Part shown: one piece after another, positions 12,601 through 58,070 of the stretch
Position numbering within the stretch: position 1 is the first letter of the stretch
How the letters are laid out: every line of letters starts with the position of its first letter
Source: Hormiphora californensis
Taxonomy: Eukaryota; Animalia; Ctenophora
Assembly (NCBI GenBank): GCA_020137815.1
Contig: CM035356.1
Coordinates: 4,588,001 to 4,652,000 of the forward strand
Length of the DNA: 64,000 nt
Direction: 5' to 3'
The notes under the pieces: model-generated
The model's database searches: none
Seen by the model: the letters and a program-made list of their open reading frames with translations, nothing else
What the model was told of the DNA's origin: nothing
Made by a program: the position numbers and the translations under genes

Positions 12601-15600
12601 TTTCATTTTTTGAAATAAAGAGGAAATCTTTGAATTTTTTGTTTAAACACAAGGATTGTTTCTATTCCAGAATTTAAAACAACGGCATGAGTACCTACTG
12701 TTTGCTATGCATCTCCCAAGACAGGCTACTACATACGCGGCACTACGTTTCAAATAGCCAGACCATGCGTTTCAAATAGTCAGACACTGTTTCACATTGG
12801 CAGGCGTTTCAAATAGCCAGTGGCTACCCTACGCTGTGAGCAAGCGGGCCGTTTTTGGGGGAATTTTTTTCGGGGGGTTGGATGGGGCCACCTTTGCGCT
12901 TGCCAGCGCAGTGACCAGTTAATTATTTAATTTACCGGTTAGCTCCAATAAGATTGAGACCACAACCACCTGCCTTGCTGCTTAACATAAACAGGAAATC
13001 CTTGCTGTCAGCATCGTTAAACCTATCAACTATCTTCATCCTCTTCTTGGCTGTCATTGAGCCATCCAACCTTACGTACTGGTACCTGGTGGATCATGGG
13101 CCGTTATGACGTCATGGGTTTATGACATAGTGTAGGAGGTTATGTGCATGAGTACCTAGAAATATCAGGACATATTTAGTTGATTGTACTGCGACAAGAC
13201 TACGAATACATCCCCCTTCCCCGTTCTCAAATTGAACCCTACCCTCTCATTCGTGCTAGGGTTTCAAACACATCCAGGGTCTGAGTGTAGTTTGATACCA
13301 GTACAAACTTATCGTCCGTCCGAGCCTTCGTAGACGCCAAGATACAATCTAGTACCGCCAGTTTTCCTGGGGAGGGCTTTTTGTAGTTTTACTAGCACGT
13401 GATGCCCATATAATATGGTGTTGAGTATCACGTGATGCCCATATATGGTGTTGAGTATCACGTGGTCACGTGCTGCTCACCTGACAGTGTTGGTTGGATG
13501 TGACGGTTGTTACAGTTACCCAGTAACTCTAATGCACCCTCCCAGCCTGGTGCTCTTTCCTCTGCTTTCTCTCTTATCAGGGCCGGGTCTGGGAAGCAGT
13601 TCGTTATATAACGGGGGGGGGGGGGGGTCTGGAGATCAGTTCATCACCCAGATATTTGCTATTTATTTGTTGTTCGTACTAGGAAAACCTTGTTATGTTC
13701 TAACCCTTCTTCACACAGTCTAGCTAGGCAAGGAAAACCTGCTAGGAAAACCTGCTAAACAACGTATTTGCTATCCTACGATAGTCACTTACAATTACAC
13801 AGCTTCTTAAGGTTTGTGATAGAAGAAAGAGCCCCCACTGCTACCTTCTTCTCCCCCTGATCTCCCGCTCTCATTGCAGCTCTTGTTGCTTTGGAGTTGG
13901 CAAATGATTGATAGATAGCAAGCTGCATGGGTGATGGGCGACAACACACAACCTGTTAGTATAATTGGTATTAGTGTTTTGGTAATCAAAGACTTTATAA
14001 AATTGACTACCTCTCTCCTACCCCTGAACGTCCTTTTTGAATGACCCCATTTCCCTACCTGTTCAATCTTGATGGGTAGATATTTCGAGAGAATTGCTGC
14101 TGTCCTCCGTATAATACACCTGATTAATAATAATAATAATGATTAGGAAACAAGAAATACACGGTTACCATTGTTACATGAATAGCAACCATTCAATAAG
14201 CTACAAATTATCATTTACCTATTTACAATGGCTAGCAGCTCCTTCAAGCACTCCTCCCCCTTTTCCTTGTCCTTATCACTAGCAAAGCTGTCCCGAGATC
14301 TGAGTATGGGATTCTCGAACCTCTTCCTAAACTCAGCTATAGTTCCCAACATGTCTTCATTGACAAAGTGCACCAGACTGTGGGAGGAGGGTTAGTTTTT
14401 ATAAAATCAAATTACAGTGGGGTGTCATTCCTCCTCTTAAATAGCATCAATATGAACGACCAATATGCACGATATGAACGACCAATTTAAAATTAACCGA
14501 GAATGTTATTACATCGAAGGACCAATGTTACTATGATACAGAGGGCAAAATGTAATTTGAAAAAGGTGGAGAAAGTTACCTGAAGTATTCCAGTAGATCG
14601 TTTTGGATTGGGGTACCAGAGAGGAGTACCCTTCTTTTGCAGTCCAGTTTGTTTAGAGCCTGATAGGTCTGGGAGTCACAATTCTTCAGTCGGTGGCCCT
14701 CGTCACATATTATCAGACCGATAGGACCTGATTAATTAGTTAACTAATGAGATGGCCCTCATCACAGATTATCAGACCGATAGGACCTAATTAATTAGTT
14801 AACTAATGGGATGGCCCTCGTCACAGATTATGAGACCGATAGGACCTAATTAAATAGTTAACTAATGAGAACCGATGGGCAATTAGCGAGAAACCAGGGA
14901 ACGGTAGCTGAAGGGGTTTTATAGAGGAAAAAAGGAATTTGAAGAAGAACTAAAGCCCCTCCTCCTGTCACCACCCGAAAACCAGAATGATGTTCATGAA
15001 CTAAACAACAGTGTTGTTGAAATATTCAGAAAACTAGCCTCTAGCACCTTGAAGATGAAGGGGAAGAAAAAGAACAAATTCCAATGGTACGACAGAGAAT
15101 GTGAGAAATCAAAAGAAGCTCTTGAGAAATGCTGCAAAAAGATATCTTCGAAATGTCAAGATAAAAAGATGAGCGAAGAATTTCACTGCCAAAAGCGAAC
15201 CTATCGCAAGCTTACCAGGAGAAAGAAAAACAGTTACAAGTGGAAACTGAACTCCAGAATATCTAACATGAACTCCCGCCAATTAAACTGGTCCGGAGTG
15301 AAGAAGCTCAAACATGAAACATCTGACGAGATTGACTTTGATGTTCTGGACCTACACAACTTCTACCTATTCTTCAAAAAGTTGTATTCCAGCAAGTGTG
15401 ACAAACCGATCTCCGATCATCCTGATCCCTCTGATCCTGAGTTTTACAACACGAGCACTAACCAGCAAGCAGTATTTCTTCTATGCCAACCAATCTCCAA
15501 AACAGAGCTGTCCGATGCCATATCGCGACTAAAAACGAACAAAAGCCCCTCGATAGATCTGATTACTAACGAGATGCTTCGCTCCACATCTAATGTTACT

Positions 15601-18326
15601 AAAGACGTCCTTGTCACGCTTTTCAACGGTTGTCTCACTCACGGGTGCTACCCATGGAACACTTCTATCACTACTGTGATCCACAAAAAAGGGGCGACAG
15701 ACAACCCGGACAACTTTAGGGCGATCACCTTGGGTAGTTGCATAGGCAAGCTCTATAGTAATATCCTACTGACCCGTATGGCAGACTTCAGAAAGTCCGT
15801 GTGCCCTGACACCGCCAATCAGCAAGGATTCGCTAAGGGTGCCCAGACCAGTGATCATGTCCTAACCCTTAAAACCATTCTGGACAAGTATCTACACATA
15901 AAGAAGCGAAGGGTCATCGCCTGCTTTATTGACTATCGTAAAGCATTCGATACGGTATGCAGATCGGCTCTCCTGAAAAAGCTGGGCTCAATGGGCATAT
16001 GTGGCAGCTTCTTCAACTGCATTTCCAACATGTACGAAAACTCATCCACTGCGATCAAACTCTCGGGAATGCTATCCGAATCGTTCTTTGTACGTATCGG
16101 TACGGAACAGGGGCACCCATTAAGCCCCGAGTTCTTTAAGATGTTCGTTGATGAGATGTCAAAGATGCTTAACAATACTAATGGATCCTTCCCTATGCTA
16201 GGCGGAGTCAACATCACCCATCTATTATGGGCCGACGATATTGTGTTATTGGCATTAGACAGAGTTACCATGCTGAATCTCATTAGTGTAGTCGGTGAAT
16301 ATGCGACCAAATGGGAGCTCGAAGTAAACACTAGCAAAACCAAGATCCTAGTGTTCAACTCATCGGGGAGGATCCTAAAGGAAGCTAAAGGCTACTATCT
16401 ACTCGGAAAAGAACTGGAAGCGGTGAAAGAATACACTTACCTGGGAATAACTTTCGTGGCCTCTGGTTCGTTGAAAACCGCCATGAAAAACCTATCACTG
16501 AAAGCCACAAGAGCTATTTCAATACTGAGGAGGACTGTTGACGTTAATGCCCTATCAGCCTGGACAGTTTTCAAGCTGTATGATGCTCTCATTGAGCCCA
16601 TTCTGACCTACGGCTCACCGGTATGGCTTCCATCACTGGAGGTGGCCAAAGCTCTGGACCAGTCAACTAGCTGTGATACTTTTTTCAAGCGTCTAACCTC
16701 TGATACATCTGAGAAAGTGCACCTGAGATTCATTAAGTGGGCGCTTGGTGTCCATAAAAAAGCCACTAATACTGCTTGCTACGGAGACTCGGGCAGAGCT
16801 CCTACATTTATATCTGCGATCAACCGTGGTCTTTCTTACTTTGACCGAGTAATGTCAAAAGAAGCAGATGGTTCAATCCTAGGCCTTGCCGGGGAAGAAC
16901 AGAGGTCTCTGAATCTAAATTGGTACTCCTTCTGGGAAAACATCCGCAACAATTTCACTAGAAATGACCTCGAGAGATTCATGATTAACCACTGGGATCA
17001 CTTGAGGCGGAACCAGTCTAAACTGAGCTATTACAACTCTGTGAAGTCAACGTACGGCTACGAGGAATATCTTAACCTGAGACGTGTAAACAGATGTGAA
17101 ATTAGCAAACTCCGGCTAAGTGCACACGACCTAAGGGTGGAGACTTCCAGATACTCAAACCACCAAACACCAAACTACTGTCGCTTCTGTTGTGATGGAC
17201 AAGCAAAACAGCTGCTCGATCAATTGCCACTTGCGGAACCACTCATCGAAAATGAACAGCATGTCCTAAATGAGTGCCCCACATACGAAGAAATGCGGCA
17301 AACTCTCCCAGACCACCTGCTCTCGGCCATCGCAAGCGGGGAAGCAGCAAACATTTACACCGAAAGGAATGGAAATGCCCTGAACAGGTTCCTCAAAGCG
17401 TCACATACATTACGAGTCAATTATATGGAACCATGAACACTTTTATATTTGCAGTAATCATATGTCAACTATTCCTGGTTAGGGCGTGTGTGGGTCTCGA
17501 TGCTCCCAGCGTCTGCCTGAGTAGAGACCAGTGGTGCTGCCGTGTGTGTGCCTCGTCGCAAATCAATCGGTTTCGCGGAGGGACAGGCAGGCGGGAGCAT
17601 TGCTGATCTGGCAGTCGCTGGGCCCATCTGTGTTTTTTTCCCCCTACTGTGCAGGATGGCACAGCCATGATGTTTTGGCTCTTTTCCTGTTGGTTTTATT
17701 CTATTCTATTCTATTCTATAGAACTGAGTAGTATGGTAATGGTAAATCAGGATGAAACCAAAACCAGAACTCGTTATTTAGGTCACGTGACTGGTTATCA
17801 GCCAATCAGGGACCAGTATTTCCTGATTCGATCAGGATGAAACCAAAACCAACCTTTTAACAGAGCGTTAACGTGAAGACGGAGTGTTTCATAGGACAGA
17901 ATTAGAACCGGATAAACCACTCTTCGACAGGTCACAAAGTCCTCTAAATCCTTGTCAATCTTTGCCTTGGTTCCAGAGTCAATAGCCAGAGGAGTTACTC
18001 TGCCTTTCAACCATTTAAAATACTCGTTGTACCAATTCTATAGACAGAGAGAGATATACACTGTGAAATGATGATGCAGATTTACAGATGAATTTAATTA
18101 TTGGGGGGGGGGGGGGGAGAGAAGGGGGTTTGAGTTTCCTGGACTCACCTTAACTAGTGAAGAAGGGCAGACAATAACAACACGAGATACAGTCGGCTTG
18201 CAGTCTTTCCCCTGTTTTAACAATGTCCACGACAAGGTGACACATTGTAACGTCTTACCCAATCCTGTAGTAGGGAAATAGAGATAGAGAGTGATAGAGA
18301 TGGAGGGAGAGAGAGGGAGATAGAGG

Positions 18327-18365
<39 letters not shown>

Positions 18366-19745
18366 CTTCTCTCTCTCTCATCTCTCTCTCTCTCTCTCTC
18401 CTATCTCTCTCTCTCTCTCTCTCTCTCTCTGCTCTACGACTCGATCGACCTCCACCCATCTCGTCATCCATGCTTGGCGAATCGATGCGCACACACACAC
18501 AGATTCTGAACAAAAAAAAATTGTCGGCGTAATACCACACTCATCTCCCAGTAAAACATCGAATACATAAATAAACCGTAATACATACCCCCTGTAGGAA
18601 AAAGTATGAAGTTGTCAAACTATATGCCAGATACTGTCTACCGCACTCTGCGAGAATTACTATCGGGTACTACTACTTACTCGGACTCGGGGTCACTCGG
18701 GCCCGGTCCGGAGAGGGTAGTGGTCAGTGGTCAACTTGGCATTATTTTCACCCAAACACACTGACCTCTGTTTACAGTCCCAGATGAGCAACCCAAACCT
18801 TGCCTTGTTCGACCCTCCAAGAGTGTGAACAACCCAAACCAAACACACTGACCTCTCTCTGGTGAGGTCTAAGGATATCCCCTAATACAGGATCCACGAC
18901 CACATGAACTTCCTCTTTAGCTTCCTCAGGTGGTGTATACATCACAAGGGCATTAGGGGCCTCAGGGTCATGTAGTGCCAACCGGACCCCACTCTTCTTG
19001 AGACCGAGAGATTTTCTGTAACCAGCTGAGGGGTAAGTGTTTGTAATGCAGCTCGAGAGGGCCTGGTTTGGAGAGGTCTTTCGTGTGATAAAAAGTGTTA
19101 CTTTGGGAAAATGTCTCAGAGCTTTTTCCCACGGTAGTATAAACGCGCGCCTATCCGATGCTGAAAAACGTAGTTTCAACTCAAAATATGCGCAGCGCGC
19201 GACTGCTAAAAACTGAGAAAAGTGTGCCACAACCGTGGACAACTAGCTGCTTCTCCATTTTATTATTTTCATCTACTTACTTGGAACATAATTAGGAATT
19301 GGAATTTGGAATGGCTTTGAGAGGAGATTCTTGATTAACGCTTCCTGAAATAAAAAACCATAATAAAACATAATAAAACATGAGCAAATCCATAAAACAA
19401 GAAAGAAACTCTTGATTTCTTACATGTGCAGATAACTCCATGCTATTGTTATTCTCCTTGTCCCCCTCCTCATCCTCTTCATCAGATAGATACCTTGGCC
19501 GCTTCTGGGTACTGCCAGTTGGAACTCTCTGGCTGGGTGCCAAGCTTCTCCGCTAAACAAGGGGAGAGTTACCATTGGTTACCATTGGTTACCATTGGTT
19601 ACCATTGGTTACCATTATTGGTATTGGAGTGAGTTGGGGGAAATCATGATTTGAGTTGGGTCCTACCTTGAGACAAAATATAGGGAAGTCCACCGCCACT
19701 AATACAATGATTAGTTGGTATTGATGTATTGTGGAATCTTACCAT
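6655..19745 (-). CDS. RAD54L: DNA repair and recombination protein RAD54 (SNF2 family), multi-exon
   Basis: ATG|GTAAG at 19745, then RRSLAPSQ (19552), LRPHQRE (~18860), [10 protein letters not shown]...VCPSSLVK (18148-18263), [11 protein letters not shown]...[14 protein letters not shown] (14580-14728), VRLDGSM...[19 protein letters not shown] (12936-13086), [27 protein letters not shown] (~9690-9790), VERHFS...[11 protein letters not shown] (9372-9508) and a final exon with QWHH...SAWD...FVCHQR (~6655-6850). Confidence 0.93.
7960..8165 (+). CDS. Possible fragment of a nested antisense gene inside a RAD54 intron, product unknown
   Basis: The ORF reads like globular protein ([17 protein letters not shown]), but the sequence is noisy and no full model can be built. 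Confidence 0.3.
8960..9372. repeat. 40-bp minisatellite (CCACCAAATGCCACCCAAAATATCCACCAAACCAAAAGGC) starting at a RAD54 donor site
   Basis: Near-perfect tandem copies at 9100-9360 that degenerate leftwards. They explain the overlapping low-complexity ORFs here. Confidence 0.9.
10745..12920 (+). mobile_element. Helentron/HINE-like non-autonomous element in a RAD54 intron
   Basis: 5' GCAAAGGTG...CACCTTTC inverted pair. The 3' end has CACCTTTGC followed by a GCGCTTGCCAGCGC stem-loop and CCAGTT. No coding capacity. Confidence 0.5.
11681..12831. mobile_element. Non-autonomous TIR DNA transposon nested in the previous element
   Basis: Perfect 26-bp terminal inverted repeats TAGGGTAGCCACTGGCTATTTGAAAC / GTTTCAAATAGCCAGTGGCTACCCTA, plus internal TTTCAAATAGCC subterminal repeats. 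Confidence 0.85.
14694..14868. repeat. 59-bp x3 repeat containing a RAD54 acceptor plus exon start
   Basis: Minus-strand unit ...AATYAG|GTCCTATCGGTCTGATAATATGTGACGAGGGCC ([10 protein letters not shown]) appears three times. Confidence 0.88.
14870..17720 (+). mobile_element. 5'-truncated non-LTR retrotransposon (RTEX-like), antisense in a RAD54 intron
   Basis: Long RT ORF with no endonuclease domain, a ~260-nt 3' UTR and a (TTCTA)n tail at ~17696-17720. Confidence 0.9.
15049..17436 (+). CDS. LINE ORF2 reverse transcriptase with C-terminal CCHC motif (795 aa open, N-terminally truncated)
   Basis: [63 protein letters not shown]...CRFC...HVLNEC. Confidence 0.95.
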   Translation: MKMKGKKKNKFQWYDRECEKSKEALEKCCKKISSKCQDKKMSEEFHCQKRTYRKLTRRKKNSYKWKLNSRISNMNSRQLNWSGVKKLKHETSDEIDFDVLDLHNFYLFFKKLYSSKCDKPISDHPDPSDPEFYNTSTNQQAVFLLCQPISKTELSDAISRLKTNKSPSIDLITNEMLRSTSNVTKDVLVTLFNGCLTHGCYPWNTSITTVIHKKGATDNPDNFRAITLGSCIGKLYSNILLTRMADFRKSVCPDTANQQGFAKGAQTSDHVLTLKTILDKYLHIKKRRVIACFIDYRKAFDTVCRSALLKKLGSMGICGSFFNCISNMYENSSTAIKLSGMLSESFFVRIGTEQGHPLSPEFFKMFVDEMSKMLNNTNGSFPMLGGVNITHLLWADDIVLLALDRVTMLNLISVVGEYATKWELEVNTSKTKILVFNSSGRILKEAKGYYLLGKELEAVKEYTYLGITFVASGSLKTAMKNLSLKATRAISILRRTVDVNALSAWTVFKLYDALIEPILTYGSPVWLPSLEVAKALDQSTSCDTFFKRLTSDTSEKVHLRFIKWALGVHKKATNTACYGDSGRAPTFISAINRGLSYFDRVMSKEADGSILGLAGEEQRSLNLNWYSFWENIRNNFTRNDLERFMINHWDHLRRNQSKLSYYNSVKSTYGYEEYLNLRRVNRCEISKLRLSAHDLRVETSRYSNHQTPNYCRFCCDGQAKQLLDQLPLAEPLIENEQHVLNECPTYEEMRQTLPDHLLSAIASGEAANIYTERNGNALNRFLKASHTLRVNYMEP
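17765..17835 (+). mobile_element. Partial copy of a short interspersed MITE
   Basis: AGAACTCGTTATTTAGGTCACGTGACTGGTTATCAGCCAATCAGGGACCAGTATTTCCTG, shared with 47229-47335 and 53650-53742. Confidence 0.85.
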
Positions 19746-21651: not shown

Positions 21652-24600
21652 CTACGCCGCATTAAAAGCTGCTTTCTTGTCCTGTTCCAGATTCCGTATC
21701 TCCCTAACAACGAGAGATGCAGCTGCTACATCCGCAGACAGCCTGGCCCGGTCAATAGTATGCTGCCACTCTACCTCTCCCCACCTACAGAGAAGAAGTG
21801 AAAATATAGAGTTATAAGAAGAGGTCTAGGTTTATTTGAAGTTGGTAAATTGATAACAAATTGAATGATTACAAAGTGATATATATACCTATCAATCTGG
21901 TAGTCTGTCTCTAACATTGAAGCTGCAATGGCCTCCTCCGTATCAAGTCCACCATCCATAAGGGCAGTAGTAATGACAAGGGATTGGAGGGAGGCGGTGG
22001 CGTGTTGGTAGGCAGGCACTTCCCAGGGGTGCAGGGACGCTAGGTGTTTCCTTACCCGGTCTGAGGGTGTTTGTATCATAACGATAATAACGGTGATACG
22101 ATGAATTTTATTAGACTTTACCAAGACACTAAATCGATACCAGACTTACCCATGACTTACTAGTTACCTATGACTTACTACATAACTAGTTACCCATGAC
22201 TTACTAACTACTTACCTATGACCCACCGATGACTCACCTATGGTTTGCTGGGACTGCGGTGTCAGTGTAATATCGGTTGTTAACGCCAGGTGAACGTGGA
22301 AGGTGGTACTGAACCAATCCGTTATGGGGTCCCATCTGGAGATTATATTACAGTGTTACCAGGGGGGGGGGGGAGGGGAATGTGGTGCTGAACCAATCCG
22401 TTATGGGGTCCCATCTAGAGATTATATTACAGTGTTACCAAGGGGGGGAGGGGAGGGGAAGGTGGTACTGAACCAATCCGTTATGGGGTCCCATCTGGAG
22501 ATTATATTACAGTGTTACCAAGGGGGGGGGGAGGGGAAGGTGGTGCTGAACCAATCCGTTATGGGGTCCCATCTGGAGATTATATTACAGTGTTACCAAG
22601 GGGGGGAGGGGAGGGGAAGGTGGTGCTGAACCAATCCGTTATGGGGTCCCATCTGAAGATTATATTACAGTGTTACCAGGGGGGGGGGGGGAGGGGAAGG
22701 TGGTGCTGAACCAATCCGTTATGGGGTCCCATCTGGAGATTATATTACAGTGTTACCAAGGGGGGGGGAGGGGAAGGTGGTACTGAACCAATCCGTTATG
22801 GGGTCCCATCTAGAGATTATATTACAGTGTTACCAAGGGGGGGAGGGGAGGGGAAGGTGGTGCTGAACCAATCCGTTATGGGGTCCCATCTAGAGATTAT
22901 ATTACAGTGTTACCAAGGGGGGGGGGGGGAGGGGAAGGTGGTGCTGAACCAATCCGTTATGGGGTCCCATCTGGAGATTATATTACAGTGTTACCAAGGG
23001 GGGGGGAGGGGAAGGTGGTGCTGAACCAATCCGTTATGGGGTCCCATCTGGAGATTATATTACAGTGTTACCAAGGGGGGGGGGGAGGGGAAGGTGGTGC
23101 TGAACCAATCCGTTATGGGGTCCCATCTGGAGATTATATTACAGTGTTACCAAGGGGGGGAGGGGAGGGGAAGGTGGTGCTGAACCAATCCGTTATGGGG
23201 TCCCATCTGGAGATTATATTACAGTGTTACCAAGGGGGGAGGGGAAGGGGAATGTGGTGCTGAACCAATCCGTTATGGGGTCCCATCTGGAGATTATATT
23301 ACAGTGTTACCAAGGGGGGGGGAGGGGAAGGTGGTACTGAACCAATCCGTTATGGGGTCCCATCTGGAGATTATATTACAGTGTTACCAAGGGGGGGGGG
23401 GGAGGGGAAGGTGGTGCTGAACCAATCCGTTATGGGGTCCCATCTAGAGATTATATTACAGTGTTACCAAGGGGGGGAGGGGAAGGTGGTGCTGAACCAA
23501 TCCGTTATGGGGTCCCATCTGGAGATTATATTACAGTGTTACCAAGGGGGGGGGGGAGGGGAAGGTGGTACTGAACCAATCCGTTATGGGGTCCCATCTA
23601 GAGATTATATTACAGTGTTACCAAGGGGGGGGGGAGGGGAAGGTGGTGCTGAACCAATCCGTTATGGGGTCCCATCTAGAGATTATATTACAGTGTTACC
23701 AGGGGGGGGGGGGAGGGGGGAGGGGAATGTGGTGCTGAACCAATCCGTTATGGGGTCCCATCTGAAGATTATATTACAGTGTTACCAAGGGGGGGAGGGG
23801 GGAGGGGAATGTGGTGCTGAACCAATCCGTTATGGGGTCCCATCTGAAGATTATATTACAGTGTTACCAAGGGGGGGAGGGGAAGGTGGTGCTGAACCAA
23901 TCCGTTATGGGGTCCCATCTGAAGTGGGAAATGTTAAGGCAAGGAGGGTCCCATCTACAGAGATATCGTGGGAGATGGGGTAAACGTTTTACCTGCCTAC
24001 TCCAACTCTCACCTGCCTACTCCAACTCTCACCTGCCTACTCCAATTCTCACCTGCTCTTCTCTAGGGCAAACAATTGTTCCTCCTCGGGGGGCGCTCTG
24101 TAACACACTGTATCAGTTGTGAGGAACTCTAACATGTGCTCTACTTGCTCACTGTCAGGGATGGGCCGATCAGTCGCCTTGAAACACAACGTAGTCACCG
24201 GCATCATCTGAGGGAGAGGTTGGTTGGAAGATTTAAAGGAGAGAGAGGAAGGGGGTAGTTGAAAATACATAACATACCACTTCCAATAGCACCCCCACCA
24301 CATTTAAAGGATAGAGAGGGAGAGAGGGATATTATATGTAGTTCCACTTTCAATAGCGCCCCCCAACATTACCTCCTGAACCCCCCCCCCCCCACCAGAC
24401 ATTACCTCAAATATGATATTATCCTTCTGTGAGTCCCACTCTAGGGCCACTGCATTGGCCAGCCTCTCAGTTGGTATAATCAGTTTGTTCTTGAATGACG
24501 TCACTAGGTTATAGTGGTCTAACTGGACCTGAAACCCATCTCCAGCGGGGGCTATTGAGATGTCCTTGTAGAACCGCTTCCTGTCTTGTTTGAATGTGGC

Positions 24601-25960: not shown

Positions 25961-26325
25961 GATGCTAGAAGGTAGAAAAGTTAGTTAGGAAATAAGTAGT
26001 TGATAGTTGAAAAGTTATTTAGGAAAGAAGGAGAAGTCAGAGAAAGAGATCAGCAATTGATTCTAAAGAGCAATTAATAAAAGGATTCGTGTGATAGCGG
26101 TGGGAAATAAAAAGTGTGTAATTAAGAAAGGATAAAATGTAAACAAATTAAAAATGGACCAGTCAACATTAAATCCGGACAGATCATGTGCGTAATCTGT
26201 AAACAACACTGACAGTATGTAGCACACTCATGTCTATAATCAACAGTTTTCACTTTCCAAACTTTCAGTTTACTTTTCGGACTCCGTAGAACTGTTTGTT
26301 TAAGATAAGGGACTTTGAAGGACCT

Positions 26326-33688: not shown

Positions 33689-33788
33689 NNNNNNNNNNNN
33701 NNNNNNNNNNNNNNNNNNNNNNNNNNNNNNNNNNNNNNNNNNNNNNNNNNNNNNNNNNNNNNNNNNNNNNNNNNNNNNNNNNNNNNNN
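33689..33788. other. Assembly gap (100 N, true size unknown)
   Basis: Run of N. The 3' part of IDH2 and the rest of the AlkB element are both missing here. Confidence 0.99.
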
Positions 33789-34724
33789 CACGTGCTCGTG
33801 ATCTCCACAAGATGAACAATTCAAGTATACCGTCATGAGACGTGTATAACAAACGTACCCATAATATTACTAAATTTAAATACATGAGCACACTTCCTCT
33901 CAGTAAACTATCTTGAGCATTATAAGCACACTACTGAGTCACAGCACTAACTTTAACAGTCAATACCCAATCAGTCGTATATAGTCATCATATCTCAACA
34001 CCCACTCTGCACTCAATCATCATAAGATTAGGACACATTAACACTACCTTGCATCAACACTGCATTATCAGTGCATGCGTACCACCCTAGACCACCCAGT
34101 ACCTACCTCAGTAGTATTGAACATCTCCCCCCGCCTCTCTCAGCCACCCAGTACCTACCTCAGTAGTATTACTAGTATTGAATATCTCCCCCCGCCCCTC
34201 TCAGCCACCCAGTACCTACCTCAGTAGTATTACTAGTATTGAATATCTCCCCCCGCCCCTCTCAGCCACCCAGTACCTACCTCAGTAGTATTGAACATCT
34301 CCCCCCGCCTCTCTCAGCCACCCAGTACCTACCTCAGTAGTATTACTAGTATTGAATATCTCCCCCCGCCCCTCTCAGCCACCCAGTACCTACTCAGTAG
34401 TATTGAATATCTCCCCCGCCCTCTTCAGCCACCCAGTACCTACCCAGTAGTATTACTAGTATTGAATATCTCCCCCCGCCCCTCTCAGCCACCCAGTACC
34501 TACCTCAGTAGTATTGAACATGCCCATTCCACACCCACCACGTCCACCCAGTACCTACCTCAGTAGTATTGAACATGCCCATTCCACACCCACCACGTCC
34601 ACCCAGTACCTACCTCAGTAGTGTTGAACATGCCCATTCCACACCCACCACGTCCACCCAGTACCTACCTCAGTAGTGTTGAACATGCCCATTCACACCC
34701 ACCACGTCCACCCAGTACCTACCT

Positions 34725-46372
<11,648 letters not shown>

Positions 46373-47228: not shown

Positions 47229-47335
47229 AGAACCGACCGAATCAGGAAATACTGGTCCCTGATTGGCTGATAAACAGTCATGTGACCTAAATAACGAGTT
47301 CTAATTGGTTGTCTACTTGTTTCGGTCGGTTCCTG
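47229..47335 (-). mobile_element. ~105-bp MITE, complete copy
   Basis: Inverted ends GAACCGACCGAA / TTCGGTCGGTTC. Three copies occur in the window. Confidence 0.85.
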
Positions 47336-47610: not shown

Positions 47611-50600
47611 TCATGCCACCAGGTTCCACTCTTCTTCAGTCGTTTCATTGACCTCACTGGGGGAGGATAGTTCACATCGGGTCTTCCTCCAACAATCTCT
47701 AATCATCTGGAGCCATAGATCCAGCTCCCAGTTAGTCTGAAACATGTCACAATGGTTACCATGGTTACCATGGTTTGTTACCGTGGTAACACAGTCACCA
47801 AGGGAACGACCCTTACACTAAGGAACGTCATATAATATACACTGACCTTCATTCTAAAGTTGTGCCACACACCCTCCTTCGCACCGGGAAGACACAAACA
47901 CAGGATTGTTACTGAATTGTTACTGACTTTATTAGGTGCACAGAGGAGAAAGCCGTAAAGTAAACTGCCGTACCACATCTCTGGGGGGAATGGAGTTGTC
48001 AAGCCAAATTATACCCCACCGGCCACCAATAATCAAACCTCTGTTATATTAGATAAAATAATTTTGTAAAGTAACTTCAAGAAACGGTCACGGAACGATC
48101 TGCGTGTAAAATCTCAAAATAATTCTGGTGTTTTGAAATTTAATCAATGAAAGGCAAAGGTGTGAAAACCATAGCACCTTCCTCTGCTGCAGTAGTACAC
48201 TAACAGATTTATCGTGAACCCAGGTTAGCCTGTCAGTAGTGAGGCACAAGTAAACCAGCTTCCAGTTGTTCCACAGGAAAGATTTCTCTAGTTTCTCCCC
48301 TCGCCCCTCAAGGACTACAGGACACCCGTCTGTCCGGGGGAGCGGAATGGATTGTAGGGACTCCCTCATATCCGCATCACTAGGGGGGGGGGTGTTGATT
48401 AGTTCAGTGACTGGCAAATTATACTAATGAGCTGAGCTGTTTATATTGCAGTGATACCATGTAGTGATTGTTGACGTTCAACTACAATAAAGCCTCTTGG
48501 CAAACTTTGCAGCCGCGGAAACCAATTAATTGTTTACCTGTTACTGACACTAAAGCAGCTTCCCTTGCTCCTCTGGAACAGTATCTCTTTATGCCACCGG
48601 TGTGGTCGGAACAGATCAAAGTTCTGGAATGACTCATCAGGTACTAGGCTGCTGGATCGGATGGTGGCACGCCGGGACGATGAACCTGGGGGAGGGGGAA
48701 CCTAGTGAGTAATGGGTGTTTCATTATCCTACACTATATATCAGGAAAATACTATATCACTGGAGAGCCAGTACTGTAAGAAAAATAAAGAATTGAAAAA
48801 GAGGGGGGACAGTGGACATACCGAACTTTGCCCCACCTACCAATATCAGTTACTGGTTTTGCATTAATTTTCCCGGGCTCAGGTCGAAATGGGGGCACCA
48901 GCTGTTGCCGTAGTGCTTTGTTCCAGTCTACACCGGAAAACCAATTGTGCGTTTTAACCTGGTGTTATAATATGTAGAATTCAGTTGATATATCATACAT
49001 GTTCTGAATTCATTCCTTCTCCCATAGAAACTTGGTTCGTATGGAACCTGTAAAATCGTTACAGAGGGGGGGGGGTTACAGGGACTGACACCCTGATCCC
49101 ATGTACCTCGCTGGCTCCATTGTTACCAAGGCGACGATACTGGTCATCCTCCAGCAGGCTGTCCAGGAGATCCCTTAGTTCATCGCTAATGTGAGGTGGA
49201 TAACTAATGGCTGGAGTACTTGTAACCATGCTTGGGACGTAACGGCTGAAATAAAACGAATAGATAACACATGAGGACCGATTAAGTTAAAAATTTATGA
49301 TCGTACACCCGAAACTGAACCAGTCTCTACTAAGCTTACCCGGTGGTTAAGATGTAAAGGGTACACCCGAAACAGAACCAGTCTCTACTAAGCTTACCCG
49401 GTGGTTAAGATGTAAAGGGTACACCCGAAACAGAACCAGTCTCTACTAAGCTTACCCGGTGGTTAAGATGTAAAGGGTACACCCGAAACTGAACCAGTCT
49501 CTACTAAGCTTACCCGGTGGTTAAGATGTAAAGGGTACACCCGAAACTGAACCAGTCTCTACTAAGCTTACCCGGTGGTTAAGATGTAAAGGGTACACCC
49601 GAAACTGAACCAGTCTCTACTAAGCTTACCCGGTGGTTAAGATGTAAAGGGTACACCCGAAACTGAACCAGTCTCTACTAAGCTTACCCGGTGGTTAAGA
49701 TGTAAAGGGTACACCCGAAACTGAACCAGTCTCTACTAAGCTTACCCGGTGGTTAAGATGTAAAGGGTACACCAGAAACTGAACCAGTCTCTACTAAGCT
49801 TACCCGGTGGTTAAGATGTAAAGGGTACACCCGAAACTGAACCAGTCTCTACTAAGCTTACCCGGTGGTTAAGATGTAAAGGGTACACCCGAAACTGAAC
49901 CAGTCTCTACTAAGCTTACCCGGTGGTTAAGATGTAAAGGGTACACCCGAAACTGAACCAGTCTCTACTAAGCTTACCCGGTGGTTAAGATGTAAAGGGT
50001 ACACCCGAAACTGAACCAGTCTGCCGCACAATAATAGATGTGGCCCTCTCTACACACCTCAGGCGCCATAAAGGAAGGCGTGCCCCTGTAATGATAAAAT
50101 GGGTGAAGTTTGGCGGGACAAATGAAATCATATTTAATATTTACACTGACACAATGTCATGCAGATAGGATACATCCAGATAGAATACATTCAGAGCACA
50201 TTTTAACAGACTTTCGACTTACGCTTTCTCTTGGCGTCCCTTAGAGCAGTCAACAGCGAGCCCCAAATCAGATATTTTTATGTGACCGTTACTGCTGACT
50301 AACACATTCGCAGGCTGAAATTGGGGACATATAATTATAAATTATCATCCCGAATGTGGATGCAATAATACTATTATTAACTGTCTTTTCTATTCCTAGC
50401 CCTCTAGTTATTAACATAACGATATAATATCTCATTGACATGGCACGAGTCTCTCCTCCCTTCCCTTTGTTTTTCTCTATGTCTCTTCCCTTTTATCTTT
50501 CTCCTCACTCTCTCCCTATATTACTCTCTCCCAATCTATCTTTCTCTATCTATCGTTCTCTCCCAATCTATCTTTCTCTTGTGGGCTCTCATCCGAGCCT

Positions 50601-53600
50601 GTTGTCATTAACAGCATACCAACAGCAGCTTAAGGCACCTGCATTAATGTTAATAGCCATGGGCACCATTAACGTTAATAGCCATGGGCAACCCCTTATA
50701 AAGATGTGTCTTAGAGCTTATTATCGCGAGACGAGCTATAAAACTAACTCAGTGTGCGCAATATGTTTCTATTTTTGCATGTGACAAATCTTTATCCAGT
50801 TTCTGATAAGATAAAGAATCAATTCCGGTTGCAACCGGGATCTTTATCTCATCAGTCTTTATCTCATCAGGAACCGGAGATATCGGAGAAATTGATCTGT
50901 CATGTTTAAAAACAACAATAGTGACAAATTACCCCGGTATAATACCCTAGTGACTTGCTAATAATGCTTTCGTAATTCTGATAACTATAAGACTATAGTC
51001 CCTGGAAAATGACTAAGGCGGTTCGTTAAGCGCGTTACCGGTAGTTTCAGGAGCATAGCAAGCAGGAAACGAAATTGTGATTCCATGCTTCCACTGTGTG
51101 CGACTGGGTTGGTTTTATATCTTGGGACAAATTAGGCGGACCAAATTTGCAAAAATAGCAGGAAAAATTATGCAGCGGGCACCTTGAACCACCTCAGTCA
51201 TTTTCCACGGACTATAATAGGCTCTTATTCTAGGAAATGGAAGACCAGGGAATACTACCAGTAACTACATATCCAGATATTCATGGAGGTGATGATAACT
51301 TTGCGACATGGGAGGCATCATGGTGGCCATTATTAGTAGCCTTCCTTTTGTTCGGCACTTTTGGATTGATGATAAACCTTTTCTCTTTTTTCTATTTTAA
51401 ACGGCAATCCGGTCTAGGAAATAGATTGCAGACACTCCTCAACTTGGTCGATATCATAACATGCCTTTACTTTATCTGCATAGTGACTCTCAGTTTTTCA
51501 TTCCGGAATTTCAATACAAAGACCGCTTCAAGGGCAAGCAATATTGATGTTATCGGGAGAGAGTTTTACACTCTCCTGGTTCCAAACCTCTGGCCTGGCA
51601 ACAGTCTATCTCTCAGTGATCAGAGCTATCCTTAGTAATAAACCTTTTTATGAGATAAAAAAGCAGCACCTCTATGCCTCTTTTATCGGGATTCTTATCC
51701 TGTTTTTGGGACTTATGATAGCCGATGGAGTGCTCATAGAACTTCCCTGCAACCAGGATATTCAAAATACACTTCAATCTCTGCAAGGAACCTCCTTTAT
51801 CTAACAAATCTACCATCAAAACAATACCCCGCCTTTCAAGCGGTTTTCCATCTCTGGTGAGGTTTCAACTTCCAGGGGTACTTCTAGAAGCGATCCCAGC
51901 TGCCCTCCTGATGTTAATACTGACAGTGTCCTCTCTCCTGACGTGGAGAGTTCTCTCCAAACCACGCAACCAACTTTCTAACTACTCCCACGCAGCAACC
52001 ACCACCCTCCTCATTTCCACTGTGTATGTGCTGTGTGCGGGGACTATAGTTACTGCACGGGCCTTTATCCGCCTAAACAAAACCAACTACACCACCAATG
52101 AGGCGACCTATTACAAACACCTCGGACAACTTGGAAAGATATCTATAGTAAAGTTGGCCAACTCAGTTCTCAATCCTCTGATATTTGTTGTCAGGAGCAA
52201 GAACCTCCGGCTCTGGATTGCGGGGAAGCTTCGGAAGTTGAGAGGAAACATTCTCAAGGGATAATATAACCAAATAGTGGAGAATACCGATACGAACTAA
52301 CTATCCTGTTAGGATCTTGGCTGCGTATAAATCTTGTGAGATGTCCGTGCAGCTGTAGCAAGTCGTGTATATTACTTTAGACTGCTAAATCCTCAGCTTA
52401 TAAAGTTGTAAAGTTGCTAAATTCCAATTAAACAATAGTTTTTGTGTCTGGACAATAGAACACTTAGTAGGGTTTACAAACTAGCTAGCTAAAAAAGAAC
52501 TTTATCAGGGTATTCCAGATATTTTAGCATAGAAACATAATAGCACACATTAACTGAAACACAATGGTTGGTGGTTGGTAACTTGAGTGGCTGGTACAGT
52601 ACTGAAACACAATGTAGTCCCACACTCCACAATTCCACCACCCAAATTAATGTCAGCCTCCTTCCTCTTCTTCAATATCACAATCAGAACTCTCCTCTCC
52701 CCTCGCTCCCCCAGGAGAACGATCCGGGGAAATGTACATATTTCAGAGTTCTTTTTTACTTGACAGAACTTGGTCTCTGCCATATAGACGCAGCTTCACT
52801 GGCTGCCAGACAGAGCCCTTCTTGTACTCATCGGTCCTCTTATCTGTTGCTACAAAAAATTTAGCTGGCGAACCCGCTTCACTGCCAGCGCTACATCATA
52901 ATCCTTCCGGAGTTCAGAAGAGAAAATCTTTATCTCCTGTTCAGATTGTAGATCTCCTGTTCAGCTGTAGATCTCCTGTTCAGCTGTAGATCTCCTGTTC
53001 AGCTGTAGATCTCCTGTTCAGCTGTAGATCTCCTGTTCAGCTGTAGATCTCCTGTTCAGCTGTAGATCTCCTGTTCAGCTGTAGATCTCCTGTTCAGCTG
53101 TAGATCTCCTGTTCAGCTGTAGATCTCCTGTTCAGCTGTAGATCTCCTGTTCAGCTGTAGATCTCCTGTTCAGCTGTAGATCTCCTGTTCAGCTGTAGAT
53201 CTCCTGTTCAGCTGTAGATCTCCTGTTCAGCTGTAGATCTCCTGTTCAGCTGTAGATCTCCTGTTCAGCTGTAGATCTCCTGTTCAGCTGTAGATCTCCT
53301 GTTCAGCTGTAGATCTCCTGTTCAGCTGTAGATCTCCTGTTCAGCTGTAGATCTCCTGTTCAGCTGTAGATCTCCTGTTTAGCTGTAGATCTCCTGTTCA
53401 GCTGTAGATTGCACCGCAATGATTTCTCTCTTCTTAAGTAACTGGCACTGTAATTCGATGACACTTTTCTGAGACTCCACTTATGCTTTTAATATGCAGC
53501 AATTTAACGGATATATCCATTCCTCTCACTCTCACAGTCGCTCTTTAACTTAATTACTCAGGTGGTCAAGTATCGAGAAATAAAAAACAGATAAACATTA

Positions 53601-56600
53601 CTCCTTGATTATTGTCGTTACTCGACACAATATATTGACTCTCCTCTACCAGGAACCGACCGAAACAAGTAAACAACCAATCAGAACTCGTTATTTAGGT
53701 CACGTGACTGGTTATCAGCCAATCAGGGACCAGTATTTCCTGTCTTTTACCAAGGTGTGAATATTAGATACACAATTGGGTTACACAGAGAGGTTAACGC
53801 AGGGATAACAGTCACTGAACACAATATAAAGGTGTAATCAGCTCTCGTGCTTCCAAAGATGGTCTCCTCACGAAGCCTTATCCTGTTGATCACATTCATC
53901 AAACAAAAGGAGCAGAATATTACCAAACTACCTGAATTCATGATAAGAATCTTGAAAGTTCCGCGAAATGATCGTTTCCTCCCATGTCCGATCGGTTTAA
54001 ATTGCACGTGCACTAATTTAACAGCGGTTAGAATGGTGAAGACCATGCCAACTAGCTGGCCCAATATGGCGGGTGCCGTAGGAATAAGAACTAAATGCCA
54101 CATTTTTAATGTAACAGATCCAATCTCACTAGAAAATGGGATATAAGCCTGAGCACCGATAGCAAACTGAATTTTCCCGAGAAATATGATATTGTCATTA
54201 CCCCAGCCATAGTCATGGGCACGTAGACTAAAGCAGATATCAGGACTCCAAAAATGGTTTTCCCGGGTAGAATCTTAAGGGGGAACGCTATTTGAACAAA
54301 TCTTGTTACTGTAAGCACAGCAGTTGTTGTGGCCGGTCCAAACATTAAACTCACTGTTAGAGCACCTAGCGGTATCCGAGTCCAGCCGACTTCCAGCCAT
54401 CCTTGAAAATACTCATCTTCAGTGGAGTGCAATATAATGTTCTGGTTCTTGGGTTGATACACCGTCACAGCTGTTGTGGAGGAAATATAGAGGGTTGAAA
54501 GGAGGTCCATAGTAGCGAGACACAGGTACAAGTTCCGGGCGAGTGAGGATCGTTTGCGGGAATTGTGTCGTAGGACTAGGATGTTGAGAGGGATGGAAAG
54601 GAATGGTGTAGAGACATAAAAAAGAAAGAGCAGGAAGTCAGGTTCTGAAGTCCCTCCTTCACTAAATATTGCCATTATTGATGATAGCTAAAACAGAACT
54701 GATTGTATAACTGCTAAATATTCCAACTACAAAAACCATAGCTCATCATAACGCAGTAATAGCTTATCATAACGCAGTACTAATACTGCATATTACATAC
54801 TACGGCAGTACGTAATATGCCTCATTAGTCATTTAAATAAAGTTGTATAGCTGCCAAATCTTCCAACTAAAACCATAGCTTATGATAAAGCAGTATATGG
54901 AATGACTAATGAGGTATATTACATGTAATATGCCTCATCAATCATTTTAAAATTTTGGGACGCAGGCTCGTGCACTAAAGTATTGTATTGTTCATACTAT
55001 TATTTTTTATTTGCAACAGCACAAAGTTAAAGTACAGCAACAGCACAACTAAAGTACAATAATCTGCCTCGACCTGTGGTCTCGGATCATTATTTTGTAC
55101 TTATAACACTCGACCTTCGGTCTCGTGTTTTCAGGTACAACTTGTAGGCATAATAAAATCCTACATGATAACACCATGATAACACCATCATATGTCACTA
55201 GTCATTACCAACCTTAAGATCTCGATATACGACATGCTTTGTGGATGTTTCCAAAACCCACGCCCCGGCTAAAAAGGCTGCTTCCCCTTAAAAGCTGTTT
55301 GGTTGTTGTTCCCAAATTCCAATCACCCCCTGGAGGAGAGAGGGGAAAAAGGGGAGAGGGGAGAGGAGGAAGGAGAGGGGAAGGGGAAAGGGGGGGGGGG
55401 GGGGGGGGTAAAAGGGGGGGGGGGGGGGGGGCCCCCCCCGGGGGGTTTTGGGGGGGGGAAAAAAAAAAAACCCCCTCGGGGGGGGGGGGTTTTTGGGAAA
55501 AAAAGGGGGGTCCCTTTTCCCCCCCTTTTCTTCCCCCCTTTTTCTTTTTTTTAAACCCCCCTTTTTTTTTTCCCCGTTTTTTTTTTTTTCCCTTAAAACC
55601 AAATTTCTTCCAAAAACCCTTTTTTTTTCTTTTTTCCGACTTTTTTTATTTTGTCCCCCCCTTTTTTTTCTTACTTGTTTTTTCCGTTTAAAAAAAAGTT
55701 TTGTAAAAAGTTCAGTAAAGTTTAATTTTTTTTGGGGGGGGCCCCTTAAAACCCCCTAAAAATTTTTGTTTTGTTCCAAAAATTTGGGGGAAAAATTTTT
55801 GGGTTTTTTCAGTAAAAAGGGTTTTTTAAAAAAAAGTTTTTTTTAACCGAAAAGGGGCCCCCTTTTTTTTTTGGGGGCCGGGGAAAAAAAAGTGGGCCCC
55901 AAAGGGTTTTTTTTTAAAACCCGTTCCTTGATTTGGGGTATTAAAACCCCGTTAAACCCCTTGTTTAAAAAAAACATAAACCCTCCCCCTTTTTGGGCCG
56001 TCTTTTTGTTTTTTTTATAGGGGGAAAAAAACCAGGGGCTTTAAAGGGTTCCCCTTAAATTTTTTTCCCCCCTTTTTTAAAAAATTTACATGCCCCCCCC
56101 AAAAATTTTTCCAAATTTTTACCCCCCCAAAAACCCCCCCCCTTTTTTTTTTCCTTGTAGTGCCACGATGAAGGGACTATCAAAAAGACAGAACATGTCT
56201 CTCTCCTCAAATGCCATCTGAATCCCCCGTTCTGATTTACGTTCCAGTAGCATGTGTTTGTTCACGTACTTGAGTGCGTGTAACGTCACTGTAAAATAGT
56301 TCAGTATTCTAGTTCCAGTAACATGTGTTTGTTCACGTACTTGAGTGCGTGTAACGTCCCTGTAAAATAGTTCAGTATTCTAGTTCCAGTAACATGTGTT
56401 TGTTCACGTACTTGAGTGCGTGTAACGTCACTGTAAAATAGTTCAGTATTCTAGTTCCAGTAGCATGTGTTTGTTCACGTACTTGAGTGCGTGTAACGTC
56501 ACTGTAAAATAGTTCAGTATTCTAGTTACCGAAAGAAGGGTTGTATTGTTCATACAACAGCACAAGGTTACACATAATTTTACAGCTGAAATTAGCAGAC

Positions 56601-58070
56601 CCCGTTTTGATTCTTAGATCGGGTCGGCGCGCTGCCAGACAGAAAATTAGTAGAATCTTCTAAAACAACCGCGTCTCTGTATTTGATTTGGATGTCTTAT
56701 GTCTTGCAGGTGTTACCGCTATCTAACGGCAATCATACGGTATGATTCCTACCCGTGTCAGACTTGGAACAGGCAAAAACATCGCCAAACCCTCCGCTCC
56801 CCACTTTTCTGTAGTGCTTGAAGTCGTCATCACTGACCTAGATATGGATATAGTTTACAAAAGGGAGTTTACTATGTAAACAAATGATATACCACCCAGT
56901 GATAATCTTGTTATGGGTCTTCCCTGCTTATTATATATGCAGAAACCCACACTCACTCGCCCTACACTAACAACTTGGGGTGAACAGTGAACTTCTTGCC
57001 CGACCCCCCTCTAACCGTCCCACCTTCCCCTCAGTTCTCACCGTGCCCCTACCCCCCCCCTTCCCCTCAGTTCTCACCATGCCCCCCCCCCCCACGTACT
57101 GCAACAAACCTTAATGTTTTCCTCAATATACTTCCACTGAAGATATCGGGTGAAGTAGCTGGACCTTGTGAAATCAAAGTACTGTTCTTTTTCAAGGTAG
57201 TCCTCGATTGTACTCCGCAAACTCTGAATAGGTTACCATGGTTACACAAAAATGACATAGCTGTAATTTTGAATACTATGGTTACCATGGTTACCGCTGT
57301 AACCATGGTTACATAACTAATTATGTACCTGAAACACCGATGGCGAAGTTTGTCCATTTCTGATACTTTGCTCCACCGGTTCGAGCAGTTTGGGCGTATA
57401 AATCGAGTCTGATGCCAGCTTATCGGGGAAAATGTACCTAGGGGTGTCACAAAATAATATCTAGGGATGTCTGGGTTACCATGGTAACAGACTAAGGTAA
57501 CACATTATGCCTAGACCACGGCACAGTGATGTCCCTTACAGATATTAGTATAACAGTACAGTAACCTTTAATTTAATTGCATGTATACTTGTCATAAAGC
57601 TCCTTCGCCTCTGTTGACCGGAGTGTGGTATGGTCCATCTTCTCGAAATCTAGGACAGCATGATGAAGATCCCAAGCGGACAGACCCTTCGAATCAGACT
57701 CAGCGTTACCCTTTAGAAATGCCCTTGGAGATGGAGATTAGAGACAGGGGTGTAAATATTATATAGCGAGAGATAGAGAGAGAGGGAGGGAGAGAGAAAG
57801 AGACGAGAGAGAGAGAGAGGGAGAGAGATAGAGAGAGAGATGGGGGTAAAGAGAGGGATGCAAATTCAAAACGAAAAATCACCTAAATAGTTCCCGGCCG
57901 AGCAAGTCCTCAAAAACTGTTTCAAATCCCAACTCAGCCCTATTATCCAGGAGGACCCGGGTTGTAAATTCCACGCTAGGATCAGGAAGGGTGATGACAG
58001 GTGGGTCAGCATCCTCTAAACGGGATATTATCAGAGCAATGTCGGCTAAGTGCTCCTCCAATCCTGCCAT
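47611..58070 (-). CDS. G protein-coupled receptor kinase of the GRK2/3 (beta-ARK) type, RH-kinase-PH, many exons
   Basis: MAGLEEHLADIA...LPDPSV...FEDLLGRELFR; DDFKHYRKVGSGGFGDVFACSKSDTG; HVVYRDLK|PANVLV...KISDLGLAVD; GTPSFMAPEV...ADWFSFGCTLY; PH-like LEGRGEKL...NWKLVYLCLTTDRLTW; stop at 47611. Confidence 0.88.
49303..50022. repeat. 58-bp x ~12 minisatellite containing a GRK exon end plus donor
   Basis: Minus-strand unit AGACTGGTTCAGTTTCGGGTGTACCCTTTACATCTTAACCACCGG|GTAAGCTTAGTAG (DWFSFGCTLYILTTG). Confidence 0.96.
51237..52264 (+). CDS. Intronless rhodopsin-class orphan GPCR nested antisense in a GRK intron; apparent frameshifts (error or pseudogene)
   Basis: Three consecutive hydrophobic ORFs: TM1 GLMINL, TM2 LNLVDII, TM3 TVYLSVIRA, TM7 NSVLNPLIFVVRS. 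Confidence 0.78.
52934..53409. repeat. 19-bp x ~25 minisatellite (GATCTCCTGTTCAGCTGTA)
   Basis: Near-perfect tandem copies lying between the two GPCRs. Confidence 0.97.
53650..53742 (+). mobile_element. MITE copy abutting the end of the second GPCR
   Basis: CAGGAACCGACCGAAACAAG...GGACCAGTATTTCCTG. Confidence 0.85.
53747..54675 (-). CDS. Intronless rhodopsin-class orphan GPCR nested in a GRK intron; one apparent frameshift near 54110-54150
   Basis: TM1 SIPLNILV, TM2 LATMDLL, TM3 AVLTVTRFVQIAFPL, TM7 TSLCNPIVYLIF. Confidence 0.8.
56241..56527. repeat. 71-bp x4 repeat containing a GRK acceptor plus exon start
   Basis: Minus-strand unit ...CTATTTTACAG|TGACGTTACACGCACTCAAGTACGTGAACAAACACATGCTACTGGAAC. 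Confidence 0.93.

Follow-up and report, generated by a model that had tools for sequence, protein, structure and literature searches.

Mirage-type minisatellites across exon-intron junctions in four neighbouring genes of a ctenophore

Nine minisatellite arrays spanning exon-intron junctions, five at donors and four at acceptors, were found in the RAD54, ATPAF2, IDH2 and GRK genes of Hormiphora californensis, within a 64-kb window (the whole stretch of DNA analyzed, on contig CM035356.1). They occupied 9 of the 96 splice sites modelled. Judged from the sequence, the nine are “mirage” minisatellites, a class known from amphioxus and from the human F7-VNTR, and this known repeat class is thereby extended to Ctenophora at high local density. 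The arrays probably arose by ordinary local tandem duplication in very short introns, with no aim at splice sites.

The arrays were located by TRF, and all ten listed in an earlier note on this DNA were recovered at or near the positions reported there. In nine of these ten, an exon part and an intron part both lay within the unit at the true splice site, as had been described; the tenth (GRK 57019–57093) was rejected as an acceptor array, as it begins 17 nt inside the intron that follows donor 57110, is purely intronic and contains nothing of the exon. The nine spanning units, of 20–80 bp and repeated head-to-tail in 3–33 copies (TRF), were each a contiguous exon plus intron segment of the genome and showed no sequence kinship with one another. 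The gene models, on the minus strand and stop-free, comprised 48 introns in the window; about 10 of these have an approximate or placeholder end, in error-rich or gap regions and in some genes. The intron ends of the zinc-finger, Tctex-like and EXOSC2-like genes are of this kind, and their models were made without homologue checks.

Table 1. Junction-spanning arrays and related repeats in the window.
Feature	Position	Strand	Repeat	Used splice site	Decoys
RAD54 acceptor array	14694..14870	-	3.0 x 59 bp (25 nt intron + 34 nt exon)	before 14727 (CAG)	2 (TAG)
RAD54 donor with single decoy copy	18752..18856	-	not an array	18853
ATPAF2 acceptor array	22298..23921	-	~20.5 x 80 bp, 38 exon nt	before 22335	20
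ATPAF2 donor array	23991..24056	-	3.3 x 20 bp, 4 exon nt only	after 24053
IDH2 donor array	34092..34768	-	~12 units, ~46 exon nt	after 34723
IDH2 donor array	42380..43061	-	~11 x 61 bp, 14 exon nt	after 43046
IDH2 intron 1 acceptor array	44438..46066	-	~33 x 42-50 bp, 16 exon nt	before 44454	33
IDH2 intron 1 donor array	46123..46290	-	5.5 x 30 bp, 15 exon nt	after 46276
GRK donor array	49303..50022	-	12.4 x 58 bp (~44-45 nt exon + 14 nt intron)	after 49978	11
GRK acceptor array	56241..56527	-	4.0 x 71 bp (23 nt intron + 48 nt exon)	before 56288	3
GRK intronic duplication	57019..57093	-	2 x 36 bp, purely intronic		0

With a GT or AG dinucleotide required for listing, 94 decoy sites were counted at the nine arrays. 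The used 9-mer was matched exactly by 34 of the 36 donor decoys, and 26 of the 58 acceptor decoys scored as high as the used site. Ungapped homologue alignments crossed five array-bearing sites, namely the RAD54 acceptor, both ATPAF2 sites, the GRK acceptor and IDH2 intron 1 (local), and hence the terminal copies are needed at these sites. The RAD54 acceptor region was identical to Bolinopsis RAD54 at 171 of 201 positions, and ATPAF2 aligned with the ATP12 homologue P0243 (153/253), both without gaps. Indirectly, these alignments suggest that the spliceosome likely passes over the decoys, as had been proposed. In the earlier note the functional exon was said to be the terminal copy in every case; this is a consequence of geometry and no evidence, for where a unit holds only part of an exon, only the terminal copy connects to the remainder. 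Two introns carried facing donor and acceptor arrays. In the IDH2 gene, the exon following the 34092 array was not found up to the assembly gap, and about 4 kb of mostly error-rich DNA breaks into the distal side of the 42380 array, of which a remnant unit lies near 38270.

After collapsing the arrays, the median length of the 48 modelled introns was 167.5 nt. The spanning arrays were dominant in the length of five introns and made up 5,548 of 34,907 intron bases (16%), a share too small for the main source of intron length that they had been taken to be. Furthermore, 22 of the 31 arrays in modelled introns were purely intronic, and thus the genome makes such arrays generally; six of ten checked lay ≤17 nt from an exon edge. 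When all intron bases served as the null, the 9 of 31 arrays that spanned a junction exceeded the 3.2 expected (P = 0.0025), whereas after masking of error-rich, retroelement, nested-ORF and microsatellite DNA 9 of 27 did so against 6.3 expected (P = 0.15). The 40 compact introns gave 7 of 15 against 5.0 (P = 0.19; range for compact introns, 0.14–0.19), and units of ≥30 bp under full masking gave 8 of 13 against 4.5 (P = 0.038). Across nulls and unit sizes P ranged from 0.0002 to 0.19, in one window that was chosen for this very pattern. Left out of the null were arrays with a period <10, the coding repeats at 26428 and 27943, and those outside modelled introns (9108–9361, 10927, 19568, the 30658 satellite, 46403, 58601 and 59463); the 40-bp, non-spanning array at 9108–9361 went uncounted because the far end of its intron is unmodelled. 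Enrichment at splice sites is thus a matter of the null chosen, and the earlier statement that the pattern exceeds chance is not established. A mutational process initiated at junctions, also suggested in the earlier note, was not borne out, since the excess is no longer significant once the null takes account of the short introns, and arrays lying wholly in introns occur near exon edges as well.

Ordinary duplication would account for the arrays as follows. With introns of only about 170 nt, duplications would often straddle a junction. A first duplication of 20–80 bp would be seeded by slippage or microhomology-mediated repair and would then grow and be homogenized via slippage or unequal exchange, like any minisatellite. 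Selection would purge duplications lying wholly in exons and spare those straddling a junction, which are tolerated because one copy remains joined to the exon. The spliceosome would choose the exon-proximal site, the first donor or the last acceptor, and the latter choice would need cross-exon recognition; rare use of a decoy would mostly yield stop-containing mRNA, cleared by nonsense-mediated decay. Repeat remainders of 3, 6, and 6 nt at the ends of three arrays fit microhomology seeding, and a 6-nt remainder spans the ATPAF2 donor. In the IDH2 34092 array the proximal units form a subfamily of 55 bp that resembles the exon, and the distal units a diverged one of 52–61 bp, which would fit stepwise turnover. 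An older 9-nt decoy was seen near 23947–23955 in ATPAF2, and a single 18-nt copy of the RAD54 donor 18853, made up of 4 exon and 14 intron nt, lies 87 bp inside the intron as a possible array seed. Against simple duplication, the distal end was an exon-derived part unit in three arrays, the GRK donor (24 nt), IDH2 46123 (about 15 nt) and ATPAF2 acceptor (about 45 nt) arrays, and therefore a single simple duplication is insufficient without later deletion. Also against ordinary duplication are the unmasked and long-unit excesses, the clustering in IDH2 (4 of its 10 splice sites bear arrays; permutation P = 0.016) and the RAD54 array, at whose ends no microhomology remainder was found. A reverse-transcriptase ORF starts about 40 nt from the far end of this RAD54 array.

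The same excesses and the clustering by gene would favor a mutational bias that seeds duplications at or near the junctions of active genes above the geometric expectation, a possible but doubtful origin. Candidate routes are transcription- or splicing-coupled R-loops, forks stalled at G-tracts and templated end joining. The density of 9 in 96 sites, two single direct repeats of 18–21 nt located at RAD54 donors or 2 nt away, and the three distal ends with exon-derived part units point the same way, and the mechanism generating mirages is called unclear in the available text of PMC3087553. However, the compact introns showed no significant excess, the window was selected for the pattern with the non-spanning 9108–9361 array uncounted, and proximity of purely intronic arrays to exon edges is expected in short introns. 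G-tracts were rejected as a general cause, being present on inspection in only three of the nine spanning units; a G/C homopolymer lies within the ATPAF2 acceptor unit. The fuller proposal, that a mutational bias coupled to transcription or splicing turns roughly a tenth of the splice sites of this ctenophore into ladders of decoys and that acceptor ladders are skipped through cross-exon definition, is considered unlikely.

Inflation or mis-joining of some or most long arrays by error-prone assembly is very unlikely. The window does contain long error-rich stretches and a 100-N gap, an IDH2 exon has a 1-nt frameshift against its homologue, and 11 GRK2 residues are missing from the GRK model directly behind the GRK donor array. 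Nevertheless, the 71-bp GRK acceptor array was recovered in short-read unitigs of two samples, each belonging to a different study; the loop unitig reached 3.4x and 4.4x the depth of the flanks, where four copies should give 3.6. By this coarse measure, for this one array of the nine, about four copies are present in both samples, and hence it is no assembly artefact. One read set that may be RNA covered no exon of the stretch compared with reads, a negative result that does not bear on expression or decoy use. Furthermore, units of long arrays share recurring variants, unlike random errors; in the ATPAF2 and GRK arrays, variants were common to several units.

It is still less probable that the decoy arrays are selected regulators that adjust gene output by way of alternative splicing with nonsense-mediated decay, or that vary the IDH2 presequence. 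The strength of the decoys would suit such a role, and two pseudo-sites are used in human 6-16 and CBS, according to the accessible part of PMC1557585. Additionally, the first three donor decoys of the IDH2 46123 array are in frame and without a stop, and use of each would add 10 aa to the N-terminal presequence. However, youth and homogenization account for near-identical units, and the stops that use of 81 of the 85 decoys with known frame would bring were rejected as a sign of design, being the default in intron-derived inserts. Least probable is RNA-templated repair from spliced mRNA or cDNA, raised in the earlier note: an exon-1-derived part unit does abut an exon-2-derived one in the middle of IDH2 intron 1, but an exon-exon junction was seen in none of the nine units, intron was contiguous with the exon part in all nine, and the joint is not an mRNA junction because exon 2 lacks its first 9 nt there and the sequence runs on into the array’s intronic part, so that a deletion between two arrays would fit.

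These arrays carry a warning for annotation, as they yield false repeated exons and disrupt spliced alignment. A first-come or cross-intron rule would select the first acceptor decoy, and that of ATPAF2 would close an intron of normal size, 135 nt; acceptor arrays could thus serve to probe exon definition in a non-bilaterian and, as far as the gene models indicate, would imply it in a short-intron ctenophore. The available text of PMC6142364 places the main shift toward exon definition in bilaterians and notes raised exon skipping in Mnemiopsis. If junction bias and skipped acceptor ladders were both true, cross-exon definition would be the operating rule in a short-intron, very early-branching animal lineage, with splice-site competition experiments provided by nature in the hundreds. 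A junction excess, if it held genome-wide, would bear on the origin of mirages.

The earlier note knew of no description of such arrays as a genome-wide phenomenon; in the literature the class is already named and described, as seen in the accessible parts of PMC3087553, PMC3902484, PMC1557585 and PMC2812944, on which the following comparisons rest. No ctenophore mirage case or genome-wide enrichment test was found in a search that covered few subscription papers. In amphioxus, mirages duplicate both donor and acceptor boundaries, in Adh3, the globins BflGb6 and BflGb9, troponin C and PGBD5 (PMC3087553, PMC3902484). The likeness lies in a minisatellite-sized unit across an authentic junction with usable GT or AG, in donor and acceptor types. 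The ctenophore differs in having four neighbouring genes, 9 of 96 sites and up to 33 decoys, as well as two introns with facing arrays. The amphioxus mirages are also polymorphic in length, are spliced normally and show concerted evolution with divergent boundary units, whereas the ctenophore arrays are known from genomic DNA; normal splicing has been reported for human F7 too (PMC1557585).

Human donor-spanning VNTRs are described in five genes, F7 (intron 7), 6-16, CBS, lamin B2 and PDGF (PMC1557585). Their first monomer lies across the exon-intron boundary, identical pseudo-donors come next, and splicing normally takes the site furthest upstream; like the unit of the ATPAF2 donor array, that of F7 holds 4 exon nt. 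The human VNTRs are on the donor side only, whereas the ctenophore also has four acceptor arrays, for which the 5′-to-3′ scanning rule of that paper fails because the last site must be used. A systematic survey of human segmental duplications for variable internal tandem repeats at exon-intron boundaries (PMC2812944; 27 intron modifications post-curation) likewise concerns minisatellite-sized units, but in young paralogues and often with new introns or alternative transcripts, whereas in the ctenophore existing introns of conserved genes were lengthened. Finally, the Rogers model of intron gain by tandem genomic duplication (cited in PMC3087553) similarly has a segment bearing splice signals duplicated and tolerated since the extra copy is spliced out; there a proto-splice site inside an exon gives a new intron, whereas in the ctenophore an existing junction is copied into an existing intron.

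Nine tandem arrays whose repeat unit joins an exon edge to an intron edge were delimited by tracing sequence matches out from the splice sites in use. TRF reported all ten arrays that the earlier note lists; the remaining one, at 57019-57093, was rejected as a splice-site array, its sequence being intronic. When all 96 modelled splice sites were screened, the same nine were recovered, together with a single 18-nt copy at the RAD54 donor at 18853. The decoys listed, that is, the additional donor or acceptor copies within these spanning arrays, amounted to 94.

Spanning arrays, with the position of the used splice site and the number of decoys
Gene	Type	Used site	Strand	Decoys
RAD54	acceptor	14727	minus	2
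ATPAF2	acceptor	22335	minus	20
IDH2	acceptor	44454	minus	33
GRK	acceptor	56288	minus	3
ATPAF2	donor	24053	minus	3
IDH2	donor	46276	minus	4 (listed)
IDH2	donor	43046	minus	9 (listed)
IDH2	donor	34723	minus	9 (listed)
GRK	donor	49978	minus	11

Of the 36 donor decoys, 34 were the same as the used 9-mer. With a scoring matrix built from 33 of the window's introns, which favours used sites, 26 of the 58 acceptor decoys equalled or exceeded the used site. Among the 85 decoys of known frame, use was predicted to give a stop in 81, a frameshift in one and an in-frame piece in three, all three falling in the IDH2 presequence. IDH2 intron 1 consisted almost wholly of two arrays facing each other, with about 35 nt of unique intron left; at 46060-46130, the donor array's last part unit was fused directly to an acceptor-array part unit.

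The four genes all lie on the minus strand, and the joined exon models were stop-free for RAD54 (9 exons), ATPAF2 (5), IDH2 exons 1-3 and GRK exons 1-6. Alignment to homologues needed no gap at the RAD54 acceptor (171/201), at the two ATPAF2 sites (153/253) or at the GRK acceptor (105/110). Over IDH2 intron 1 the alignment was ungapped locally (93/113), a 6-aa gap lying upstream of it in the presequence. The best named match of a RAD54 exon was Bolinopsis microptera (96% over 49 aa), and a GRK exon matched, at 96%, a EukProt protein with an identifier in the style of Pleurobrachia gene models; the two matches mark the window as ctenophore, probably close to Pleurobrachia. Pfam placed ATP12 in two ATPAF2 exons, and RGS and kinase domains in the GRK homologue. 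A GC donor was apparently used in the RAD54 intron at 9682. The assembly of the window contained error-rich stretches and a 100-N gap, ahead of which the remaining IDH2 exons were not found. One IDH2 exon carried a 1-nt frameshift relative to the homologue P0054. At donors 43046 and 34723 the exon stopped where the homologue continues, and the exons following these two were missing or in bad sequence. At the GRK donor junction, GRK2 residues ~388-398 had no counterpart; this absence of ~11 residues between the flanking exons (49246-49303) may be genuine divergence, or may stem from a lost mini-exon or a deletion in the assembly.

The reality of the arrays was borne out in reads for the GRK acceptor array, the one array to which this check was limited (four of the seven listed runs, over 56160-57760). 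Run X1 possibly comes from the source sample; its 101-nt loop unitig (71+30) had a depth of 104.5, 3.4 times the flank's 30.4, where 3.6 times is expected for four copies. In run X5, an independent sample from another study, the core unitig reached 1331.5 against 302.9 (ratio 4.4), and unitigs spanned the unit boundaries. Run X2 gave no coverage of the array; the sole possible RNA run, X7, had no exon coverage in the stretch compared.

The null model covered 48 modelled introns, whose median length after collapsing each array to one unit was 167.5 nt; units were placed at random within an intron or over a junction, provided that no exon or intron was covered entirely. With every intron base included, a site was spanned by 9 of 31 arrays against 3.2 expected (P=0.0025). 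In the 40 introns not longer than 500 nt, P was 0.19 (7/15 vs 5.0 expected). Masking error-rich DNA, in which TRF performs poorly, gave 0.019; adding the retroelement to the mask gave 0.057, and adding nested ORFs and microsatellites as well gave 0.15 (9/27 vs 6.3 expected). Among arrays with units of at least 30 bp, 8 of 13 spanned a site, with P=0.0002 before masking and 0.038 under the full mask; in compact introns 6 of 9 did so (P=0.14). IDH2 held four of the nine spanning arrays on 10 of the 96 sites (permutation P=0.016). These figures depend on masks of our own choosing and on a window picked for showing this pattern, and they exclude a non-spanning 40-bp array; a modest excess at junctions is no more than a possibility. 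Spanning arrays, which the earlier note called a main source of intron length, were not the main one: they added 5,548 of 34,907 intron bases (16%; purely intronic arrays, 8%), yet they dominated single introns, which on collapse shrank from 1,717 to 127 nt in ATPAF2, from 1,821 to 102 in IDH2 and from 732 to 70 in GRK.

Regarding origin, the nine units were mutually unrelated and each was a contiguous genomic segment, none with an exon-exon junction, which argues against RNA-templated repair. Seeding was probably by slippage or microhomology-mediated repair; end remainders of 3, 6 and 6 nt in three arrays are consistent with microhomology, and the RAD54 array had no such remainder. A longer exon-derived part unit ended three arrays, and two ends were broken or fused. 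The arrays would next have expanded and turned over like other minisatellites; the two subfamilies of the IDH2 array at 34092 were taken as a sign of this. Survival would then act as a filter, since a duplication straddling a junction keeps one copy joined to the exon; the terminal position of the functional copy, which the earlier note reported for all arrays, is thus a geometric necessity. Tolerance would require choice of the exon-proximal site. For donor arrays, this would be the F7 rule, as given in passages of PMC1557585; acceptor arrays require use of the last site, even though an intron of normal size (135 nt in ATPAF2) would already be closed by earlier decoys, and this suggests cross-exon recognition. 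The targeting mechanism proposed earlier is unproven, and unneeded for this window.

Other features were noted in the window. An 842-aa stop-free reverse transcriptase ORF (RVT_1; 14908-17436, plus strand), probably part of a non-LTR retroelement, lies within RAD54 intron 6 and starts about 40 nt from the acceptor array. A 64-bp element at 17746-17851, with further copies at 47235-47302 and 53679-53742, has 21-bp direct-repeat flanks starting 2 nt inside a RAD54 donor; such long target-site-like repeats could seed arrays. An intronless ORF with an AlkB-like 2OG-Fe(II) oxygenase domain (32895-33689, plus strand), possibly retroelement cargo, adjoins a 348-bp satellite (30658-32581) and the assembly gap. 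The large GRK intron (50086-55212) holds a 25 x 19-bp array and two unannotated ORFs on opposite strands, without a Pfam match; an expected kinase exon was not located. The sequence at 56596-56630, with very high summed contig depth and inverted-repeat-like loose ends in three runs, is probably a small mobile or regulatory repeat. Palindromes that we take to be RFX X-box-like recur at 57475, 60182, 60489 and 60985 (related sites at 21425, 24928, 47754 and 57231-57312), several in introns or close to gene starts, and in each of the four runs the summed depth of the 57274-57312 motif was very high. An intronless PfkB (ribokinase-like) gene (24974-25984) and a tandem pair of GNAT acetyltransferase ORFs (61842-62570 and 63003-63770) also lie in the window.

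In the literature searched, we found no ctenophore case of junction arrays and no genome-wide test of their enrichment; passages of a ctenophore genome paper (PMC8527503) give tandem repeats as 13% and do not mention such arrays. The class itself has been described: according to passages of PMC3087553, amphioxus "mirages" are minisatellite-like duplications of 5' and 3' boundaries alike, at several loci, with normal RT-PCR products, length instability and an origin called unclear. Passages of other papers add PGBD5 and troponin C (PMC3902484) and a survey of human segmental duplications for such boundary repeats (PMC2812944). A 21-aa piece occurs about 18 times in the unrelated BTB-Kelch protein P0244; this could be a mirage array wrongly annotated as exons. 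The nine ctenophore arrays are real, dense and well formed, and belong to this known class; like the amphioxus mirages, they occur on both the donor and the acceptor side.
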